Below, piece by piece: positions 9,734-60,418 of a stretch of DNA of 64,000 bases. Position 1 is the first letter of the stretch. Every line of letters starts with the position of its first letter. The position numbers were made by a program, and so were the translations under genes. The DNA is from Christensenellales bacterium (lineage in GTDB: Bacteria; Bacillota; Clostridia; Christensenellales; CAG-917), in NCBI GenBank assembly GCA_051883555.1, contig JBJETY010000036.1, positions 3,671 through 67,670 of the forward strand, read 5' to 3'. The notes beneath the pieces were generated by a model. It was not told the DNA's origin and ran no database searches. It was given only the letters and a program-made list of their open reading frames with translations.

Positions 9734-10837
9734 ATGATTAACGTTTTAAAATTAAATTCAATTTCCAAGAAAGTTAACGACGTTTTGACCAACGGCTATA
9801 CACTGTCGGACGATTGCAAAAATCCTGATGCCGTTTTAGTCCGTAGCTTTGCTATGCACGAATGGGAAGTCCCGAGCGCTTTGCAATGCGTTGCAAGAGC
9901 AGGCGCCGGCGTAAACAATATTCCTTGCGAAGAATACGCAAAAAAAGGTATCGTCGTTTTCAATACCCCGGGCGCAAACGCAAACGCGGTTAAAGAACTT
10001 GTCATCGGCGCTTTGCTTATCTCTTGCAGAAACCTTTTCGAAGGCAATACGTGGGCAAACGGTTTAACGGGCGACGACGTAAAGAAACAGGTCGAAAAAG
10101 GAAAAGCTCAATTTGCAGGTACCGAAATTCTCGGTAAAACAATCGGCATTTTAGGACTCGGCGCAATCGGCAGAAAGGTTGCCGTTGCATGCAACGCTCT
10201 CGGAATGAACGTAGTCGGTTACGACCCGTTCTTAAGCGACGCGGCCAAGGCTGAAATTCCTTTCGCAAAAGTTTTTGCCACAATGGACGAAGTTTTCGCC
10301 ACTTCCGATTTCATCACTCTTCATATGCCGTATTTGCCTGAAACAAAAAATCTCGTCAATGCGGATTCAATCGCAAAAATGAAAGACGGCGTTATCATCA
10401 TCAATGCGGCTCGCGGAGAGCTTGTAAATATCGCGGATATAAAAGCGGCGTTGACAAGCGGCAAAGTACGCAAATACGTTGTCGACTTCCCTGACGGCGA
10501 TTGCCTCAACTTTAAAGGAATTATCGCAATTCCTCACCTTGGAGCGTCAACCGAAGAAGCAGAAGACAACTGTGCAATTATGGCGGCAAACGAAATCAAA
10601 TCGTATATGGAAGAAGGCAATATAATAAACAGCGTAAACCTTCCTAACCTTACCGTTGCAAAGAACGCCAAACACAGAGTCGGTGTTATTTATAAGGGCA
10701 AGCTCGGAAAGGTTGACGGCAACGTTTCCACGGCTTCAAAAGGCGAATATAACTATTCCGTCATCGACAGCGATACTGAAATCGACGCAGCTGCAATTTC
10801 TGCCGACGAACTTATCAAAGTCAGAGTCGTTTATTAA
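9734..10837 (+). CDS. serA: D-3-phosphoglycerate dehydrogenase (D-2-hydroxyacid dehydrogenase family)
   Basis: NAD-binding GILGLGAIGRKVA and catalytic-domain layout. Adjacent to serC. Confidence 0.88.
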   Translation: MINVLKLNSISKKVNDVLTNGYTLSDDCKNPDAVLVRSFAMHEWEVPSALQCVARAGAGVNNIPCEEYAKKGIVVFNTPGANANAVKELVIGALLISCRNLFEGNTWANGLTGDDVKKQVEKGKAQFAGTEILGKTIGILGLGAIGRKVAVACNALGMNVVGYDPFLSDAAKAEIPFAKVFATMDEVFATSDFITLHMPYLPETKNLVNADSIAKMKDGVIIINAARGELVNIADIKAALTSGKVRKYVVDFPDGDCLNFKGIIAIPHLGASTEEAEDNCAIMAANEIKSYMEEGNIINSVNLPNLTVAKNAKHRVGVIYKGKLGKVDGNVSTASKGEYNYSVIDSDTEIDAAAISADELIKVRVVY

Positions 10838-46501: not shown

Positions 46502-46999
46502 TTATTTATGCAATGTGCTAAACATAATAGCTGTGGATGCAGCGACTGATGCGCTATGTTGTATTGCGTTGACAAGCTCCATATTTCTTATATTTTCTAA
46601 TTTCTGCTTGTAAAATTCTTTCTCGTCATTGCTCATATCATCACATTTCAAATAATTTAAATATAAGTTTTTAATTTGCGGCAAAAAATTCCTTGGTCCT
46701 TTTTTTATGGCTCTACGCCCACCCAGGTTCATCAAAAGTATAAAAAAAACACCTAACCCAAGCGAGCCTATACCATATACTTTTTCAAATAGCGCACCTA
46801 TAGGTTCCCTTTCATATCCCGAAAAGGTGATTTCAGGCGGGGTGGTAAAACCAATAATCATCAAAATAAGACCAACTACAATTAAAAGCGAGCCAATAAT
46901 ATTCCAAATTAAAATTGCTTTTTTTGCCTTCATTATATGTTGTTCTCGACAATTTTCCACTTCATGATAATATTGATTTTCGGCTTCTTTAATCGTCAT
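46502..46999 (-). CDS. Hypothetical two-TM membrane protein (165 aa)
   Basis: Strong SD GGGAGGA lies 8 nt upstream. Two hydrophobic helices (ILIWNIIGSLLIVVGLILMIIGF and IGSLGLGVFFILLMNL). The start overlaps the upstream ORF by 11 nt. Base composition is visibly AT-richer and CG-poorer than the neighbouring genes. Confidence 0.65.
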   Translation of the reverse strand: MTIKEAENQYYHEVENCREQHIMKAKKAILIWNIIGSLLIVVGLILMIIGFTTPPEITFSGYEREPIGALFEKVYGIGSLGLGVFFILLMNLGGRRAIKKGPRNFLPQIKNLYLNYLKCDDMSNDEKEFYKQKLENIRNMELVNAIQHSASVAASTAIMFSTLHK

Positions 47000-47210
47000 T
47001 GTTTATATCCTCCCAATCTTTCTTTGTCTGTCTTTTTTTGATTGCTTTTGTGAATTTACTAAAAGAATGTTCTTTTGTAGATTTCAAAATACCTTTCTTA
47101 TTTGATGTCTTAAATCCCGTTGATGTCTCTTTGTCGCAAATCTCCATATACTCGCTTAAATGTATCAGAGCGTAGGCAATATCGTCAGTACTGATTTTTT
47201 CATGTTTCAT
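46989..47210 (-). CDS. Hypothetical small basic protein (73 aa)
   Basis: AGAGG SD 8 nt upstream. Translationally coupled to the 165-aa gene. No family recognised. Confidence 0.55.
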   Translation of the reverse strand: MKHEKISTDDIAYALIHLSEYMEICDKETSTGFKTSNKKGILKSTKEHSFSKFTKAIKKRQTKKDWEDINNDD

Positions 47211-47434
47211 TTATTTTTACCTCTGTAAAATAAAAAGTGCGCCTACCGAAGTAAACGCACAAAAAACGCAAACTCCGATAGTCGCCAAACCAACTGAAAA
47301 GCAAGAACAAATCTACGCTATATCCAGTACGAATTTGCATTTTTATCAAATTCATTATGGACATAACGCAAAAAGAATATAATTACCTCAAAAGATAAAA
47401 ATAGTCCTTGCCTAATTTATTCAGTTGGTTTGGC
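47211..47434 (-). ncRNA. Unclassified structured 5' leader (riboswitch/attenuator-like) of the 73-aa/165-aa cassette
   Basis: The predicted TSS G47434 starts a 15-nt arm (47434-47420) that is perfectly complementary to 47298-47284 and encloses 121 nt. A UUCG-capped terminator (47260-47237), a U tract, the SD and the ATG follow. Confidence 0.5.
47231..47260 (-). terminator. Leader terminator/attenuator hairpin with UUCG tetraloop
   Basis: Minus strand reads GUGCGUUUAC-UUCG-GUAGGCGCAC (10 bp including two G-U pairs), followed by UUUUUAUUUU. It lies 26 nt before the ATG at 47210. Confidence 0.7.
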
Positions 47435-47440
47435 ATAATT

Positions 47441-47469
47441 ATTATATCACATATAAAATATTTTATCAA
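47441..47469 (-). promoter_or_regulatory. Extended -10 sigma-A promoter of the leader
   Basis: Minus strand reads TTGATA (47469-47464), 17 nt, TGaTATAAT (-10 at 47446-47441). Confidence 0.6.
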
Positions 47470-47492
47470 GTAGTTTTTAGTGGACAAAAGAA

Positions 47493-47517
47493 AACTCGAC
47501 TTAAAAAAAGTCGAGTT
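47493..47517 (-). terminator. Intrinsic terminator ending the yxjI-like transcript
   Basis: AACTCGAC-ttaaaaaaa-GTCGAGTT, followed on the minus strand by TTTCTTTTG. Confidence 0.6.
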
Positions 47518-47544
47518 GTAATTAAAGTGATATTGTTTGAATTG

Positions 47545-47720
47545 TAAACAGTTATATTTTTAGAGTAGTCTAAAAGTTATATTTTGACTTGCAGTCAAAG
47601 TTATATTAAATAAATCCTTAACTTGCCGATAGGCAATATAACTTGCGAAAGCAAATGTCAAAATCCGTTTACGGATTTATTTAGTTGCCGAATCCCTTGT
47701 AGGGACTCGGTTAAGTTGGA
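47545..47720. repeat. Array of six short hairpins interleaved with a phased 9-mer (AGTTATATT x3 direct, x1 inverted)
   Basis: The 9-mer occurs at 47550, 47575 and 47599, with an inverted copy at 47635. The hairpins are tttaga/tctaaa, ttgact/agtcaa, ttgcc-gata-ggcaa, ttgc-gaaa-gcaa, aaatccg-ttta-cggattt and ccgaatccc-ttgta-gggactcgg. Confidence 0.7.
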
Positions 47721-47787: not shown

Positions 47788-48321
47788 TTAATGGCTTTGA
47801 TGATGCAACGTATCGATCAACAAACCGATTATAAGAAGATAATGTTTCGGAACGGATTCGTTAAGAATCTCCACTTTATACGTATCTGCGATTTTGAAAA
47901 CCTTTTTATTGACTTTTGCTATAAGTCTTTCCTCTTTAGGAAGCGACTTGTCCTTAATCTTCCAATTGAATCCGATAAAGCTGCCGGTTATTCTGAGTTT
48001 ATGCTCGACTCCGTTTTCGTCGACGTATTCAAGATAGCCTCTGCGCCTTAAAGGCATATGGAAACCTTCTTTGAATCTGGCAATCGGATTGCTCGCTTTG
48101 TTCTCTGCGATATATCCTTCTGCTATGTCGAATTTAGCAAAAATAAAGGATATTCTCGATACTACCGTAAGAATAGGATTGCCTTGCGGGTCGGAAATTA
48201 TGAATTTCTTATGGAAAAACGTCCATTCGCTTCTTACTAAATATTGAACGGTATCATGCTCGTCTAAAATAGAATAATTTTCGAGGACTGACCAAAATTT
48301 TTGTTTGATATAAAGTTCCAT
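47788..48321 (-). CDS. LURP-one-related / YxjI-like (tubby C-terminal-like fold) protein
   Basis: 177 aa. The N-terminus LYIKQKFWSVLENYSILDE and overall pattern match the YxjI/DUF567 family. Confidence 0.75.
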   Translation of the reverse strand: MELYIKQKFWSVLENYSILDEHDTVQYLVRSEWTFFHKKFIISDPQGNPILTVVSRISFIFAKFDIAEGYIAENKASNPIARFKEGFHMPLRRRGYLEYVDENGVEHKLRITGSFIGFNWKIKDKSLPKEERLIAKVNKKVFKIADTYKVEILNESVPKHYLLIIGLLIDTLHHQSH

Positions 48322-57312: not shown

Positions 57313-57454
57313 AAATCAATAATAGTTTAAACCAAAACAACGCTTCAGGCTTTAAACAAGGCTTTTAGCGGCTTATCGTAAAATAGTTTTAAAAACAAAT
57401 TTTACGCAAATTTTTTTGCAAATACCGCATTAAACGTGCGATATAAAATAAATA

Positions 57455-57568
57455 TACGCTGGGGGTGACGGCTTGCCGTCTGAGATTAAACCCTTTGAAC
57501 TTGATTGAGTTGGAACTCACGAAAGGAAGCATTCAGTCCTCGATGGTTTTCCACGAGGACTTTTCTTT
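57455..57568 (+). promoter_or_regulatory. TPP (THI-box) riboswitch with intrinsic terminator expression platform
   Basis: CTGGGGGTGACGG...CCGTCTGAGA...ACCCTTTGAACTTGAT...GGAACTCACGAAAGGAAGC matches the TPP aptamer core. The terminator GTCCTCG-...-CGAGGAC plus TTTTCTTT lies at 57536-57568. Confidence 0.9.
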
Positions 57569-57590
57569 ACAACCAGCGGAAGGAGTAAAA

Positions 57591-58784
57591 ATGGACTTAA
57601 AAAATTTTAAGTCGTTATCAACCTTTGACAAAACGGCAACGATCGCCTTTTTTGTCACTATCTTTTTTGCAATTGTAATAATTGCAATTTTAGCCGTTTG
57701 CAAAAAACGCAACTCGTCAGAAAAAGCCAGACCATACGTCGGCGGTTTCATTTTCGGCTACAGTTTGTCGCTTATTCTTATGTTAGGCTTCTTAAAGCTC
57801 GACGAATATTCGGCAGCCGGCTATATCGAAGCGAATAGTTTCTACCCTGTTCTCGCATTCGTTCTGACCGTTCTCGTCCTTGCAATCGTAGCTATAATCA
57901 TTCTGCTTTTCAAACGCGACAAGTTCTCGCTCTTTGCCAAAATCGCAGGCGGAATCATCATAGCGTTTGCGGTAGCTTTAATTATTGCAATGGGCGTTTT
58001 AAAGAACGACATCGTTCTCAGCGCCGCCGACAATGCAATGCTTTATATCTTTACGATACTTATCGTTGCGGCTATTGCGGTTCTTGCAATTTTCTGCGGA
58101 AAAAAGGAAGACGGCAGATTGCATACGAAATCCATCGTTTACGCCTCTCTTTCGATTGCTCTGTCGTTCGCTCTTTCATACGTCAGATTCTTTGAAATGC
58201 CGAGTGGCGGCTCGATAACTTTGGCAAGCATTCTTCCGCTTATGATTTATTCGTATATGTTCGGAATACGCCGTGGCATCATAGCAGGTATAATCTACGG
58301 TTTCTTACAGTTTATTCAGGCACCGTGGCTCTACCACCCTGTACAGTTCCTTCTCGATTATCCAATCGCATTCTCGGCTATCGGACTTAGCGGACTTTTC
58401 AAAGAAGTCGGACTTTTCAAAAATAAACCTATCGTCAACTTCCTGCTTGGCGGACTTCTTGCCGCGGTATTGCGTTATTTCTCTCACGTTATAAGCGGCG
58501 TATTTATCTTCGGAAGCGGCGACCCTAACTATACGGCTGTTGCATGGAGTTTCCTTTACAACTCGTTTGTATTTGCAGACCTTGCTATCGCACTCGTTGC
58601 AGGCTCGCTTATGTTCGCTTCAAAAGAATTTGTCAAACGACTTGACGTCAGTCTCCCTGCGTCAAACAAGGACGTAACGATCGAAGGAAAAACCGAAGAG
58701 ACGTCAAACGGCTCTGACGAAGAAGTTAAAGAGAGTAAAACGGAAATCAATGCAGAATCCGGCAATACTTCGTCAGAAAGCTGA
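57591..58784 (+). CDS. thiT: Thiamine transporter ThiT (ECF S component) fused to an extra N-terminal 5-TM domain and a Ser/Glu-rich tail
   Basis: The C-terminal half (SIALSFALSYVRFFEMPSGGSITLAS...) is ThiT-like. The start is set at ATG 57591 after GGAAGGAG. The track ORF start at 57465 lies inside the riboswitch. Confidence 0.85.
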   Translation: MDLKNFKSLSTFDKTATIAFFVTIFFAIVIIAILAVCKKRNSSEKARPYVGGFIFGYSLSLILMLGFLKLDEYSAAGYIEANSFYPVLAFVLTVLVLAIVAIIILLFKRDKFSLFAKIAGGIIIAFAVALIIAMGVLKNDIVLSAADNAMLYIFTILIVAAIAVLAIFCGKKEDGRLHTKSIVYASLSIALSFALSYVRFFEMPSGGSITLASILPLMIYSYMFGIRRGIIAGIIYGFLQFIQAPWLYHPVQFLLDYPIAFSAIGLSGLFKEVGLFKNKPIVNFLLGGLLAAVLRYFSHVISGVFIFGSGDPNYTAVAWSFLYNSFVFADLAIALVAGSLMFASKEFVKRLDVSLPASNKDVTIEGKTEETSNGSDEEVKESKTEINAESGNTSSES

Positions 58785-59118: not shown

Positions 59119-59727
59119 TCACTTTTTATAATGGAAAATGAACGCTTCCCCGTCCGTTATTTCGAATTTAACCGTTTCGTCCGTCGCTACGTTAGACATA
59201 CCGCGAGAAAGGTCGTCGCTTTTTATGGTCAGATTATCGAGAGGATATTTTACGCCGTACGCTTTTAAACACGTAACGGAGTTAAAAGGCATAACGGATA
59301 TCAGATCGCCGCATTGCGCGGCAAATTCGATATTAGATGCCGCATAAAAAATTTCAAGCGTTTTTCCGTTTACGTTGTCAATCGCCATAGCGTCGATACC
59401 GTTTTCCGCCGATTTTTTAATAAGGCTTAAATTCGCCAACTGGTGGTCAAGTCTGCCGCCCGTAACTCCGGAAAACACCGCCTTTTTATAACCGTTTTCA
59501 ATAGCGTATTCAAGACACAATTCACCGTCGGAATAATTCTTTTCAGACGGATATCTTATTGCGTTTTCCACGTCGCGCTCTTTTGACGAATCGAAATCGC
59601 CGATAACGACAACGGGTTTTACTCCGTATCCTTTTACTTTGTCGTAACCTCCGTCGGCGCATATAAGGTCGCCAAACGGCTGTGAAACGCTGTCACTGTT
59701 TAAAGCTATAAAACATTCTTTAAGCAT
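59119..59727 (-). CDS. thiN: Thiamine pyrophosphokinase
   Basis: ICADGG...VIGDFDS motif and a C-terminal thiamine-binding domain. 202 aa. Confidence 0.88.
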   Translation of the reverse strand: MLKECFIALNSDSVSQPFGDLICADGGYDKVKGYGVKPVVVIGDFDSSKERDVENAIRYPSEKNYSDGELCLEYAIENGYKKAVFSGVTGGRLDHQLANLSLIKKSAENGIDAMAIDNVNGKTLEIFYAASNIEFAAQCGDLISVMPFNSVTCLKAYGVKYPLDNLTIKSDDLSRGMSNVATDETVKFEITDGEAFIFHYKK

Positions 59728-60418
59728 TTAAAAGCTCCTTTATAACGAACTCGCCGATTTTTATCCCCGCCGCCGCAGGAGAAAAAGAAACACTTCCGGG
59801 AATATGTCTGCCGTTTTCGGTTATCTGCAAATCGGGTTTAATCGGAACGTCGCGGCTGAACAAAACTTTAAGAGATTTAATTCCCCTGTCTTTAAGTTCT
59901 TTGCGCATCACCTTGCAAAGCGGACAGACGCTTGTCGAATAAATATCGTCGATTATGAAATCGGTAGACAACTTATTTCCCGTCCCCATACAACTTATAA
60001 TTTTTACGCCGACGTTTTTTGCGTTTTCTATAAGCAAAAGTTTACTCGAAACGGTATCTATTGCGTCAACTATATAATCGAATTTTGAAAGGTCGATTTC
60101 GTCGGCTGTCGACTCGTCGTAAAACATTTCAAAAGGTCTGGCGTTGATTTTAGGGTTTATATCGAACATTCTGTCGCATATAACTTCAACCTTGCTCTTG
60201 CCTATGGTGCTGTGAGTCGCTATAATCTGCCTGTTGATGTTGCTAGGCGACACAAAATCGTTGTCTACAACGGCAATAGTGCCTATACCGCCCCTTGCTA
60301 AAATTTCCGCCACGTAGCCGCCTACTCCGCCCGCTCCGAAAACTACAACCTTAGATTTTTGCAGTTTTTCGACCGCGTCTTTGCCTATAAGCATTTCTTC
60401 TCTTTCAAAAATATTCAT
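59720..60418 (-). CDS. tcdA: tRNA threonylcarbamoyladenosine dehydratase (ThiF/MoeB-family, TcdA-like)
   Basis: Dinucleotide fold VVVFGAGGVGGYVAE...VDND and an NRQ motif. 232 aa. Confidence 0.85.
   Translation of the reverse strand: MNIFEREEMLIGKDAVEKLQKSKVVVFGAGGVGGYVAEILARGGIGTIAVVDNDFVSPSNINRQIIATHSTIGKSKVEVICDRMFDINPKINARPFEMFYDESTADEIDLSKFDYIVDAIDTVSSKLLLIENAKNVGVKIISCMGTGNKLSTDFIIDDIYSTSVCPLCKVMRKELKDRGIKSLKVLFSRDVPIKPDLQITENGRHIPGSVSFSPAAAGIKIGEFVIKELLNA

Follow-up and report, generated by a model that had tools for sequence, protein, structure and literature searches.

A candidate family of 5' leader RNAs from gut Clostridia and phages with the features of a three-state transcription attenuator

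What is the function of the RNA that separates a strong minus-strand promoter from two small-protein genes in the window (the whole 64,000-nt stretch of DNA analyzed here)? An earlier note on this DNA had read the interval as a riboswitch-like leader fitting no known aptamer class. On balance, we favor a different account, namely that the interval belongs to a new family of 5' leader RNAs that acts as a three-state transcription attenuator. The features that bear on the question are these.

47441-47469, minus strand: sigma-70-type promoter (-35 TTGATA at 47469-47464, 17-nt spacer, extended -10 TGaTATAAT at 47449-47441).
47420-47434, minus strand: 5' arm of helix P1, GCCAAACCAACUGAA, identified by folding and by its perfect-repeat match to 47298-47284.
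47404-47413, minus strand: 5' strand of helix P2, GGCAAGGAC..., with its partner at 47308-47299 in both the MFE and the centroid structure.
47378-47403, minus strand: side hairpin, which branches from the 5' side of the rod and creates a three-way junction.
47358-47372, minus strand: 5' strand of helix P3, with its partner at 47326-47312 and a G.U-rich interior.
47329-47355, minus strand: apical stem-loop, AUGAAUUUG-AUAAAAAUG-CAAAUUCGU, where conservation within the rod is highest, with invariant columns.
47331-47344, minus strand: element A, AAAAAUGCAAAUUC, extending from the 3' portion of the apical loop into the 3' arm; candidate anti-antiterminator strand (AAAAAUGC is a stretch within it).
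47284-47326, minus strand: 3' strands of P3 (47326-47312), P2 (47308-47299) and P1 (47298-47284), identified by folding, repeat match and covariation.
47272-47281, minus strand: S1, CUAUCGGAGU, 5' strand of the predicted antiterminator (AT), with its partner at 47252-47243.
47262-47275, minus strand: element B, the tail, GAGUUUGCGUUUUU, overlapping the antiterminator 5' strand and loop and complementary to element A.
47227-47260, minus strand: predicted intrinsic terminator (T), GUGCGUUUAC-UUCG-GUAGGCGCAC followed by UUUUUAUUUU, with a 10-bp stem that shows covariation.
47220-47224, minus strand: Shine-Dalgarno sequence AGAGG of the 73-aa ORF, recognized from the sequence.
46989-47210, minus strand: optional first cargo gene, encoding a 73-aa Lys-rich protein.
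46502-46999, minus strand: cargo gene for a 165-aa two-TM helical-hairpin protein, overlapping the 73-aa ORF.

The promoter matches 11 of 12 consensus positions, carries the additional TG and is the top-scoring site of a 2.2-kb scan. All homologous copies have the -35/-10 pair, and in all of them 8 nt separate the -10 box from the first G of P1, a spacing that would place the 5' end of the transcript at or next to G47434. The two P1 arms (47434-47420 and 47298-47284) are 100 % complementary and lie 121 nt apart. The terminator hairpin begins 23 nt beyond the 3' arm of P1; its stem (47260-47237, 10 bp with a UUCG loop) is followed by TTTTTATTTT at 47236-47227, by the AGAGG at 47224-47220 and by the ATG at 47210 that starts the 73-aa ORF. 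The promoter, 15-bp closing helix, terminator, Shine-Dalgarno sequence and start codon described in the earlier note are thus all present on the minus strand at the positions it gave, except that its terminator range (47260-47231) covers the stem and only part of the U-run. Its reading of this order of features, from promoter through structured 5' domain and terminator to Shine-Dalgarno sequence, as a cis-regulatory layout is borne out by homologous copies, in which the leader RNA is conserved and strand-specific.

The RNA folds far more stably than expected by chance. For the 210-nt RNA the folding energy is −84.6 kcal/mol, compared with −40.5 ± 4.2 for shuffled sequences (z = −10.4). Folding of the minus strand gives 58 pairs, eight of them G.U, at −66.6 kcal/mol, whereas the plus strand reaches −39.1 kcal/mol with no G.U pair. 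Because G.U pairs occur on the minus strand only, the element is an RNA structure, and in each standard copy the sense fold is more stable than the antisense fold. The earlier note had pictured an AU-rich domain enclosed by P1; the helix is real, but the domain is not open, since its 121 nt are paired nearly throughout. The result is a branched rod of ~58 pairs with one side hairpin in the window copy.

We gathered and aligned the family with nhmmer profiles and hand-anchored sub-alignments, the full alignment having 241 columns. It comprises 22 distinct copies from uncultured gut Clostridia and phage contigs, 21 of them in the standard arrangement and one (L013) flipped. Across the family the rod measures 45-50 bp, and the sequences of its helices drift freely; the P2-equivalent helix, for example, differs in sequence among copies (GUACGG/CCGUAC in one case). 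Of the 21 standard copies, 20 carry the side branch on the 5' side; the exception, L083, folds into a single rod with neither a branch nor a three-way junction. A branch on the 3' side is seen only in the flipped L013. The side hairpin itself also varies, and no junction or internal-loop core is conserved among the copies.

Searches for known relatives of this RNA agree with the earlier note, which could not match it to any of the aptamer classes that it listed. Rfam 15 contains no family that matches the element, even at permissive E-values and with the whole window included. At E ≤ 10, two sub-threshold chance matches to eukaryotic miRNA families fall within 47225-47434 (17.9 and 15.6 bits against gathering thresholds of 70 and 94; E about 5), and a snoRNA match over the first ~50 nt of the RNA is likewise sub-threshold (18.2 against 50 bits). 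The only matches at gathering level in the window are a tRNA (601-673) and a TPP riboswitch (57451-57544). We considered and rejected 6S RNA (no RF00013 match; a rod without a central bubble). The plasmid collection that we searched contains no match to the element, and a literature search for its conserved strings returned only one unrelated primer. Loose motif scans of IMG/VR returned 21 and 120 loci, mostly chance AT-rich matches, although three of the 120 are genuine new copies (L144, L176 and L186). Five partial nhmmer matches (L017, L104, L105, L139 and L151) turned out to be unrelated palindromes. As far as sequence comparison can tell, this ~205-nt structured RNA appears to be a previously undescribed 5' leader family of gut Clostridia and phages.

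The genes behind the RNA (its cargo) have diversified greatly, while their placement has not. They always start ~15-60 nt past the RNA on the same strand, with a Shine-Dalgarno sequence and without a promoter. In the window the U-run ends just 16 nt before the ATG, which leaves the cargo genes no space for a promoter of their own, and in L004 the Shine-Dalgarno sequence directly abuts the U-run. The 73-aa gene is absent from L001, L004 and L078, in which the RNA lies directly upstream of the 165-aa gene. Pfam, PADLOC and PHROGs assign no family to either the 73-aa or the 165-aa protein. The latter has 41 homologues, and its AlphaFold model (pLDDT 83.5) retrieved only generic helical hairpins from the PDB with Foldseek (E ≥ 0.02, TM about 0.3). 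In other copies the cargo includes further two-TM proteins, lipoproteins, a Zn-ribbon membrane protein, a multi-TM protein and, in one case, an EcoRI-type methyltransferase with a GmrSD_N/HNH nuclease. There is no common metabolic theme among the genes behind the RNA. The module is portable: in phages as in chromosomes, the accessory ('moron'-like) genes that it precedes are unrelated to one another.

Two mutually exclusive structures at the end of the leader are both conserved with covariation. S1 pairs with 10 nt (47252-47243) that run from the end of the terminator's 5' arm across the loop and 4 nt into its 3' arm. In the terminator, 98.9 % of alignment cells are paired and three pairs have changed on both sides (19 sequences). 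For the antiterminator the corresponding values are 95.1 % and four pairs (UA:UA, AG:CU, AA:UU, A-U to G-C and G-C to A-U), compared with ≤49 % in slid controls. The antiterminator is the MFE structure of the tail plus terminator segment in 11 of the 13 copies folded, by 1.5-7 kcal/mol over the terminator, the MFE being the terminator in L006 and L014; it forms part of the MFE structure in the window copy, and a U-to-G change in L078 gives it one more pair. The stretch UGCGUUU just before the terminator, which the earlier note suspected of joining an alternative pairing, is indeed used by this conserved helix. Compensatory changes are also frequent in P1 (95.4 % of cells paired, 10 of 15 pairs with such changes, 15-17 bp among copies), the closing helix of the earlier note. 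Both hallmarks of a terminator/antiterminator attenuator are present: a G+C-rich hairpin with a U-run between the promoter and the first gene, and a conserved helix that excludes it.

Outside the terminator, strong sequence conservation is confined to two stretches, the apical element and the tail, which are mutually complementary. The complementarity extends over ~14 bp between the apical loop plus 3' arm and the tail. In the window the A:B duplex is predicted at −15.7 kcal/mol (z = −4.1), and in all 21 standard copies the apical element is the best partner of the tail within the hairpin (−11.6 to −17.1 kcal/mol, z from −2.5 to −5.1). Pairing is largely kept where the sequences vary: UUCC/GGAG has become UUUC/GAAG in L006, both A and B have changed in L083, GCG has become GUA in L186 with its pairs retained, and L003 and L078 have gained extra G-C pairs, one position in L078 turning into G:G. 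A and B are nearly invariant, and double-sided covariation for A:B comes from few copies. The combination of A:B with the terminator is more stable than that of the apical hairpin with the antiterminator by 1.4-11 kcal/mol (mean 6.1, n = 21). All 21 standard copies have this A:B duplex as a candidate means of sequestering the antiterminator strand from upstream; the flipped L013 lacks it.

These structures suggest the following scheme. Transcription from a strong, constitutive-type promoter would begin at the first base of the long branched hairpin, and P1, P2, the side hairpin, P3 and the apical stem-loop would be followed by S1, the tail and, 16 nt before the first cargo ATG, the terminator. 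S1 and the tail would form the antiterminator by pairing across the terminator hairpin, from the last part of its 5' arm through the loop and into its 3' arm. Because the antiterminator is locally more stable than the terminator and is transcribed first, read-through would be the default. If A instead pairs with B, the antiterminator would be blocked, the terminator would form and transcription would end with a stable ~205-nt RNA as its product; in this state the apical loop would serve as a built-in anti-antiterminator. Both the terminated 3' end and the read-through transcript are predictions from the sequence.

Pairing of A with B would most probably nucleate through a loop-loop contact between an A-run and a U-run. 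It might take place within one molecule, or earlier terminated leaders might act in trans on nascent ones, which would amount to an autogenous, dose-dependent shut-off like those of the phage P4 CI RNA or the pIP501 RNAIII. A straight rod would put the apical loop 45-50 bp (about 130 Å) from the tail, so that pairing in cis would need a fold-back at the three-way junction. Against such a fold-back, the position of the junction is not fixed and L083 has no junction. A fixed geometry with the junction at the midpoint, which we considered as support for pairing in cis, is only roughly true. Moreover, because efficient, unmodulated pairing in cis would mean a permanent OFF state, some modulator (RNA dose, a protein, temperature or a ligand) would be required.

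Several known systems resemble this proposed attenuator in part. In P4 immunity (CI RNA, seqA/seqC) and in the c4-ant system of P1 and P7, the regulator RNA derives from the unit that it terminates. As in those systems, a stable stem-loop derived from the leader of phage or mobile DNA has a loop complementary to a later site in the transcript, and pairing would lead to premature termination. The likeness is mechanistic only, however, as there is no Rfam match to C4 or IsrK, the hosts here are Firmicutes, termination would proceed through an explicit T/AT pair, and the cargo consists of accessory genes rather than replication or antirepressor genes. RNA-induced attenuation is documented for the P4 CI RNA and its seqA target (PMC3632133 and its references) and for the pIP501 RNAIII (PMC4981023). 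In the Gram-positive plasmids pIP501, pAMbeta1 and pT181, a long-lived structured RNA tips the nascent leader through loop contacts from read-through to the terminator fold (PMC4981023). The regulators of these plasmids are transcribed from the opposite strand and their own promoters, whereas here the candidate regulator is part of the same leader on the same strand; the sole nearby plus-strand promoter-like site (47430-47459) points away from the element. Attenuators of the B. subtilis pyr and trp type, T-boxes and OFF riboswitches likewise combine three overlapping pairings in which the antiterminator is locally more stable than the terminator and an upstream element sequesters the antiterminator 5' strand. 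In those systems the upstream element is adjacent and is stabilized by a protein, a tRNA or a ligand. In contrast, the anti-antiterminator proposed here sits at the apex of a 45-50-bp hairpin, far away in the secondary structure, with no evident effector and no Rfam match.

If the proposal is correct, uncultured gut Clostridia and their phages, in which almost no regulatory RNAs have been characterized, would gain a new and widespread family of cis-regulatory RNAs. Its design would be unusual in that the antiterminator is blocked by the apex of the same leader's long 5' hairpin, which suggests either autogenous, dose-dependent RNA control or control by some other factor. To our knowledge, autogenous control of this kind has so far been found in P4 and P1 phages and Gram-positive plasmids. 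A promoter-leader-terminator cassette of this type may also explain the conditional silence of phage 'morons' and island genes, and a three-state switch this compact, with no evident need for a protein, could serve as a part in synthetic biology.

Alternatively, the P1 arms might be the inverted repeats of an invertible DNA segment between the promoter and the genes. The common orientation would carry A and terminate, while the flipped one would carry the complement of A, so that the antiterminator would win and the cargo would be expressed. We regard such a phase-variable switch as unlikely; it can coexist with the RNA attenuator mechanism. Evidence for it comes from L013, in which the tail matches one strand (E = 9e-16) and the hairpin interior the other (E = 7e-8), the side hairpin is on the 3' side, the antisense strand folds better than the sense strand (−55.7 against −44.0, opposite to every other copy) and A:B complementarity is lost (−7.0 kcal/mol, z = +0.45). 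Since the longest perfect repeat in L013 is about 10 nt, this flip was not made by the assembler. Two large serine recombinase genes, recognized by sequence motifs, end about 40 nt before the L013 promoter. The inversion of the 121-bp segment that the earlier note had named as a contrary outcome has thus occurred in a homologue from another organism, but is not seen in the window's own strain, for which contigs from two samples (L200 and L201) show the standard orientation only, although assemblies report the majority form.

The position of the repeats also fits an invertible segment, which they flank past the promoter and before the ORF. They are nearly free of G.U pairs in all copies, and G.U is rarer in the P1 arms (16/337) than in the interior (103/814; Fisher p = 3e-5, phylogeny ignored). 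Methyltransferases, lipoproteins and membrane proteins, which occur among the cargo, are typical of phase-variable genes. Nevertheless, only one of 22 copies is flipped, no recombinase is found among 20 ORFs of the window, and the recombinases beside L013 are of the integrase type and may serve the mobile element only. Rare template switching can also flip long palindromes. Furthermore, the interior is paired, G.U-rich and strand-asymmetric, which points to long residence in one orientation, and an inverton needs no hairpin interior. A search for relatives of L013 with the opposite orientation gave none. Breaks within the RNA occur in several Logan assemblies. We examined contig ends as possible traces of inversion and rejected them, as joined contigs break at a T6 run (47261/47272) or 7 nt into P1 and not at the outer ends of the repeats. 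Three odd nucleotides at the start of L072 are likewise not explained by an inversion junction.

The closest known counterpart of such a switch is cwpV of C. difficile, in which an invertible element in the 5' leader is acted on by RecV, the promoter lies upstream of the left repeat and a terminator in the leader decides the outcome (PMC2784873, PMC7446863). The flgB flagellar switch of C. difficile is grouped with it as a RecV-acted invertible leader element. The geometry at our locus is similar, with a promoter outside repeats of 15-17 bp (21 bp in cwpV), about 120 bp between them and termination that would depend on orientation (PMC2784873). Both systems belong to Clostridium-class hosts and have a 100-200-bp segment without a promoter or ORF, both have the outcome set after initiation by a leader terminator (here predicted), and one natural copy here, L013, is inverted. 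RecV-type enzymes can act from a distance (PMC2784873). However, the segment here is itself a long hairpin with G.U pairs, selected at the RNA level in a single orientation, and the terminator is constant and lies outside it, so that orientation would act indirectly by removing the anti-antiterminator. In addition, no single population with both orientations was seen, and no dedicated recombinase was identified among the 20 window ORFs examined.

A broader version combines the two ideas. The sensing hairpin might also be invertible DNA, so that a flip would keep the rod, swap the loop for its complement, delete the anti-antiterminator and lock the cargo ON. Moreover, A and B hardly differ between phage and chromosomal copies, so that terminated leaders made by one element could shut down the cassettes of others in the same cell, a form of RNA-based cross-immunity. 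We consider this combination a doubtful extension. If it held, the element would be a phase-variable riboregulator and a means of cross-immunity among gut Clostridia phages and islands; the single inverted copy provides a testable link between RNA attenuators and phase variation by DNA inversion.

Rather than RNA alone, a host or phage protein might read the apical stem-loop (GAAUUUG-N9-CAAAUUC) or the tail and so set the balance between antiterminator and terminator, as BglG/SacY, PyrR and HutP do in attenuators of their own. The near-invariance of the apical loop and tail exceeds what pairing needs, and conservation of A could reflect a protein-binding site instead. A modulator is needed if A:B acts in cis, and the cargo is phage-associated. 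Even so, protein control as the basis of the switch seems quite unlikely to us: no candidate protein accompanies the RNA with any consistency, many copies lack the 73-aa protein, and the sites show no likeness to RAT, ANTAR, PyrR or TRAP sites and no Rfam match. Their invariance can also be accounted for by multiple constraints, in that A must pair with its own stem and with B, and B with A and with the terminator strand.

A small-molecule riboswitch of a new class, in which the hairpin would bind a metabolite or ion and shift the T/AT balance, is very unlikely. The arrangement of promoter, structured domain, terminator/antiterminator and Shine-Dalgarno sequence would suit it, as would a conserved RNA without an Rfam match, the three-way junction and the many membrane proteins among the cargo, which are common for ion or toxin riboswitches. 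Yet the nucleotides of the junction and internal loops are not conserved, and the sole conserved elements of this freely drifting rod pair with each other, unlike a ligand pocket. P1 is 15-17 bp long and does not overlap the antiterminator strand, so that stabilization of P1 by a ligand would be unable to gate the switch. The cargo genes form no coherent functional set, and the RNA is found in phages. The heterogeneity of the downstream genes and the lack of a conserved junction or internal-loop core therefore make a metabolite riboswitch unlikely, and we abandon the aptamer reading of the earlier note.

More doubtful still is a stand-alone sRNA gene whose 205-nt product acts in trans elsewhere, with the terminator as its end and downstream expression arising from leakage or from elsewhere. 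The strong promoter, the 5' hairpin at +1 and the good terminator would yield a stable, abundant RNA, and a rod with an exposed loop resembles antisense RNA; but a covarying antiterminator that overlaps the terminator would be pointless in a plain sRNA gene, and the fixed position of promoterless cargo behind the RNA does not fit. A scan of the window for other A-complementary or B-like sites gave five matches, a chance-level result (2.4 expected), and two of the five belong to the element itself.

Finally, the 54-codon ORF at 47364-47200 that the earlier note had offered for leader-peptide attenuation does exist, with an apical-loop AUG in every copy and a frame that is open through the terminator in the window, but ribosome-mediated control through it is scarcely credible and we reject it, as the ORF has no Shine-Dalgarno sequence in any copy, ranges from 5 to more than 38 codons without a conserved stop position and has its AUG sequestered at the loop/stem boundary, and its 'MQIP' is kept only through the conserved RNA sequence AUGCAAAUUCC.

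The window carries, on its minus strand, a structured leader RNA (47434 to about 47227) between a promoter and two small-protein genes, with the following parts.

47469-47441, minus strand: promoter TTGATA-17 nt-TGaTATAAT (11 of 12 consensus positions, plus the TG)
47434-47420 and 47298-47284, minus strand: 15-nt arms of the closing helix P1, 100 % complementary and 121 nt apart
47344-47331, minus strand: apical element A, AAAAAUGCAAAUUC
Starting 2 nt after P1, minus strand: S1, CNNUCGGAGU, the 5' strand of the antiterminator (AT)
47275-47262, minus strand: tail B, GAGUUUGCGUUUUU
47260-47237, minus strand: 10-bp, UUCG-capped hairpin of the intrinsic terminator (T), then TTTTTATTTT
ATG at 47210, minus strand: AGAGG (SD) and start of the 73-aa ORF, which the 165-aa ORF overlaps

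The promoter, complementary arms, UUCG hairpin, SD and ATG read by the earlier note are thus all present at these minus-strand coordinates. Its P1-closed domain stands as far as the arms are concerned, but it overlooked that the 121 nt between them are themselves nearly fully paired: the RNA from 47434 to 47284 folds into one long branched hairpin of 58 pairs, comprising P1, P2, a small side hairpin, P3 and an apical stem-loop. The predicted fold of the 210-nt leader (−84.6 kcal/mol) lies far below that of shuffled sequences (−40.5 ± 4.2; z = −10.4). The long hairpin has eight G·U pairs on the minus strand and none on the plus strand, on which the fold is 27 kcal/mol worse, indicating that the structure is selected in the minus-strand RNA.

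Loci gathered via the 165-aa protein (41 homologues) and DNA motifs were screened with an nhmmer profile, which identified 22 distinct copies of the leader RNA. Copies occur in MAGs of uncultured Clostridia from the gut of rabbit, chicken and other hosts; others are in Logan and ENA metagenome contigs or in contigs predicted to be phage (IMG/VR; GenBank MT835503 and MT835845). In every copy the −35/−10 promoter ends 8 nt upstream of the first P1 G, a constant spacing from which we infer that the transcript starts at the hairpin foot, and the hairpin is followed by an intrinsic terminator, an SD and a gene, in that order. The identity of that gene varies, as listed here for the fetched loci (L numbers).

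Window: 73-aa + 165-aa pair
L001, L004, L078: 165-aa gene alone
L011: 352-aa gene, then the 73-aa + 165-aa pair
L013: 98-aa protein with three TM segments, and a lipoprotein
L014-16: Zn-ribbon membrane protein, beside genes putatively terminase-like by sequence features
L082: EcoRI-type methyltransferase and GmrSD_N/HNH nuclease
L083: lipoprotein
L144: 292-aa multi-TM protein
L186: 128-aa TM protein

Conversely, 165-aa homologues at the L002, L010, P0009 and P0025 loci lack the RNA and have a plain promoter instead. L144 and L186, from related phages in IMG/VR, differ by 1 nt in the hairpin while their tails, SDs and cargo genes differ, which places a recombination joint at the P1-tail boundary; the pair shows cassette-style exchange of cargo behind one leader. 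Given the varied cargo, the RNA-less 165-aa loci and this pair, the unit behaves as a portable promoter-leader cassette. In a degenerate copy in L008 (about 1477-1560), a deletion joins the promoter and the RNA's first ~45 nt (GUCAAACUAACUGAAUUAAAUUAGGCAAGGGGCUAUUUUUG) directly to the 73-aa ORF; this natural 'leaderless' variant is predicted to be constitutive.

At least 12 different P1 sequences exist across the family, with 95.4 % of cells paired and 10 of 15 pairs compensatory (at most 46 % paired when the partner was slid). T is 98.9 % paired, both sides having changed in three pairs. The suspicion that an alternative pairing exists near the terminator was borne out. S1 pairs with a stretch made up of the UUCG loop of T, the two bases before it in the 5' arm and the four after it in the 3' arm, and this AT, which is extended by an inner GCGU/GCGU helix, is mutually exclusive with T. 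It is conserved and covarying, with 95.1 % of cells paired (at most 49 % with a slid partner) and both sides changed in four pairs (UA:UA, AG:CU, AA:UU; A-U to G-C; G-C to A-U). Of the 13 copies whose tail-plus-terminator segment was folded, 11 have AT as the minimum free energy (MFE) structure of that segment, with a margin of 1.5-7 kcal/mol over T; in the window AT also lies within the MFE structure of the whole leader. Since S1 is transcribed first, read-through is expected to be the default.

A third pairing joins A and B, which are the most strongly conserved blocks in the family and are complementary over 14 bp with two G·U pairs. Among the 21 copies in standard orientation, A is always the tail's best partner anywhere in the hairpin domain, with duplex energies of −11.6 to −17.1 kcal/mol (z = −2.5 to −5.1 against shuffled tails). 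Pairing is kept in L006, where UUCC→UUUC in A accompanies GGAG→GAAG in B, and in L083, where both sides differ (AAAAGUGCAUGCUC : GAGUUGUGCAUUUUU); L186 still pairs after GCG→GUA, L003 and L078 have additional G-C pairs towards the loop, and L078 has a single G:G mismatch. Because B overlaps the 5' strand and loop of AT, A:B and AT are mutually exclusive. By summed nearest-neighbour energies, every one of the 21 copies favours A:B plus T over the apical hairpin plus AT, on average by 6.1 kcal/mol (range 1.4-11). As modelled, the A:B, AT and T pairings are the signature of a terminator/antiterminator/anti-antiterminator switch, in which the A-run of the apical loop and the U-run of the AT loop could provide a loop-loop nucleation point.

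We propose a three-state attenuator in which the anti-antiterminator would be the tip of the leader's own 5' hairpin. The pairings, their conservation and covariation, mutual exclusivity and energy ordering are computed, from which we infer that A:B forms in vivo, and how; on this modelling, A:B is probably a functional anti-antiterminator. In a straight rod A would be ~45-50 bp away from B, so that pairing in cis would need a fold-back at the three-way junction, which is only roughly mid-rod. Action in cis with some modulator appears rather doubtful. Autogenous action in trans, which we suggest tentatively, would need no extra factor. Terminated leaders, which begin with a hairpin at +1 and finish in a terminator, should for that reason be stable; they could accumulate and pair in trans with nascent leaders, causing dose-dependent shut-off. 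The CI RNA of phage P4 shuts down its own operon in this manner. PMC3632133 and its references touch on this P4 precedent, and RNAIII of pIP501 shuts off repR by RNA-mediated attenuation (PMC4981023).

Routine inversion or active phase variation of the DNA, which would add to this RNA mechanism rather than replace it, is a minority possibility. Inversion of the 121-bp segment, which the earlier note raised, was seen in L013 but not in the window's own strain, which has the standard orientation in contigs from two samples. In L013 the promoter, P1 base, tail and terminator keep their usual order, but the hairpin interior is reverse-complemented: the nhmmer matches to the tail (E = 9e-16) and to the interior (E = 7e-8) lie on opposite strands. 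Unlike in the 20 other branched copies, the side hairpin is 3'; the antisense fold is better than the sense fold (−55.7 vs −44.0), the reverse of every other copy; P1 has an A·C mismatch where a flipped G·U pair would fall; and the tail no longer has a partner (−7.0 kcal/mol, z = +0.45). The perfect repeat of the arms is only ~10 nt, too short for an assembler to have flipped the segment. Two putative large serine recombinase ORFs (434 and 529 aa; YxRVSS/YARVST catalytic motifs; oriented positions 825-3718 of L013, IMGVR_UViG_3300010346_002427) end ~40 nt upstream of the promoter. Across the family, G·U pairs are rarer in P1 arms than in interiors (4.7 % vs 12.7 %). The geometry agrees with that of the C. 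difficile cwpV switch, in which the promoter lies outside 21-bp repeats and the orientation of a 195-bp invertible leader segment decides terminator formation (PMC2784873). There is substantial evidence against routine inversion, however: L013 is the sole flipped copy among the 22, a check of 20 window ORFs revealed no recombinase, and the G·U-rich interior implies a long stay in one orientation. Recurrent assembly breaks in the window's strain fall at a T6 run (47261/47272) rather than at the repeat ends.

This T6 run belongs to the AT loop, and independent Logan assemblies of the strain (L035-37, L200-201) end or start there (47261-47272) with only 12 nt of overlap, which suggests T-run length heterogeneity or a coverage drop past the hairpin; T-runs of family members are 4-6 long. 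In L014, L080, L082 and L144/L186, mostly phage, the side branch takes the form of a G+C-rich hairpin with UUUUUG after it (e.g. GGGUAUAGCAUAUACCC-UUUUUG). It resembles an intrinsic terminator and, at ~60 nt from the start, is placed as the cwpV OFF terminator is; in the window the side hairpin is not strong enough for this.

A metabolite-binding aptamer, the reading that the earlier note had favoured, is unlikely. Neither junction nor internal-loop nucleotides are conserved, the side hairpin is variable and L083 has no junction; the conserved blocks A and B pair with each other, P1 is long and does not overlap AT, and the mixed cargo genes have no common theme. Leader-peptide attenuation fails, as the ORF from the loop AUG ranges from 5 to >38 codons without an SD and its conserved 'MQIP' merely mirrors the conserved RNA. 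A plain sRNA gene would leave the covarying antiterminator and the promoter-less cargo unexplained. No extra targets of the apical element were found within the window.

The Rfam comparison proposed earlier gave no credible match to a known family (Rfam 15, even at E ≤ 10); the only gathering-level matches in the window are tRNA and a TPP riboswitch, both outside the element. A literature search for the conserved strings returned no paper containing them. The leader RNA is real, conserved and previously undescribed, and was correctly located; it is terminator-based leader control, a known kind, of unusual design.

Palindromes of almost the same sequence (GAATTTGCAAAAAATGCAAATTC type) are present in unrelated phage contigs (L104, ~9880-9930; L017; L151), one of them placed like an operator, with a divergent HTH repressor-like gene on one side and a promoter on the other. 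They are probably chance likenesses of AT-rich palindromes, and raise the question whether the apical element might also be a DNA-binding site.

Just upstream of the promoter, the intergenic region 47483-47700 (minus strand) contains a chain of three to four ~25-nt units, each AUAUAAC plus a 7-bp hairpin of differing sequence, with a terminator (47517-47493) at its end (fold z = −5.9; TRF period 25, 2.5 copies). Its Rfam matches are sub-threshold only (Gut-1, 21.6 bits vs a gathering score of 50), and it could represent either another small RNA or the upstream gene's 3' UTR. That gene (47788-48321, minus strand) encodes a LURP-one-related (PF04525) protein, of a family better known from plants, and lies between folate-biosynthesis genes (folE, folP, folB/K, folC-like) and the cassette. 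The GTG listed as the start (57465) of ORF 57465-58784 falls within the TPP riboswitch (57451-57544, plus strand; RF00059, 61.7 bits), and thiamine-related genes (TPK, ThiF family) lie at 59119-60418.
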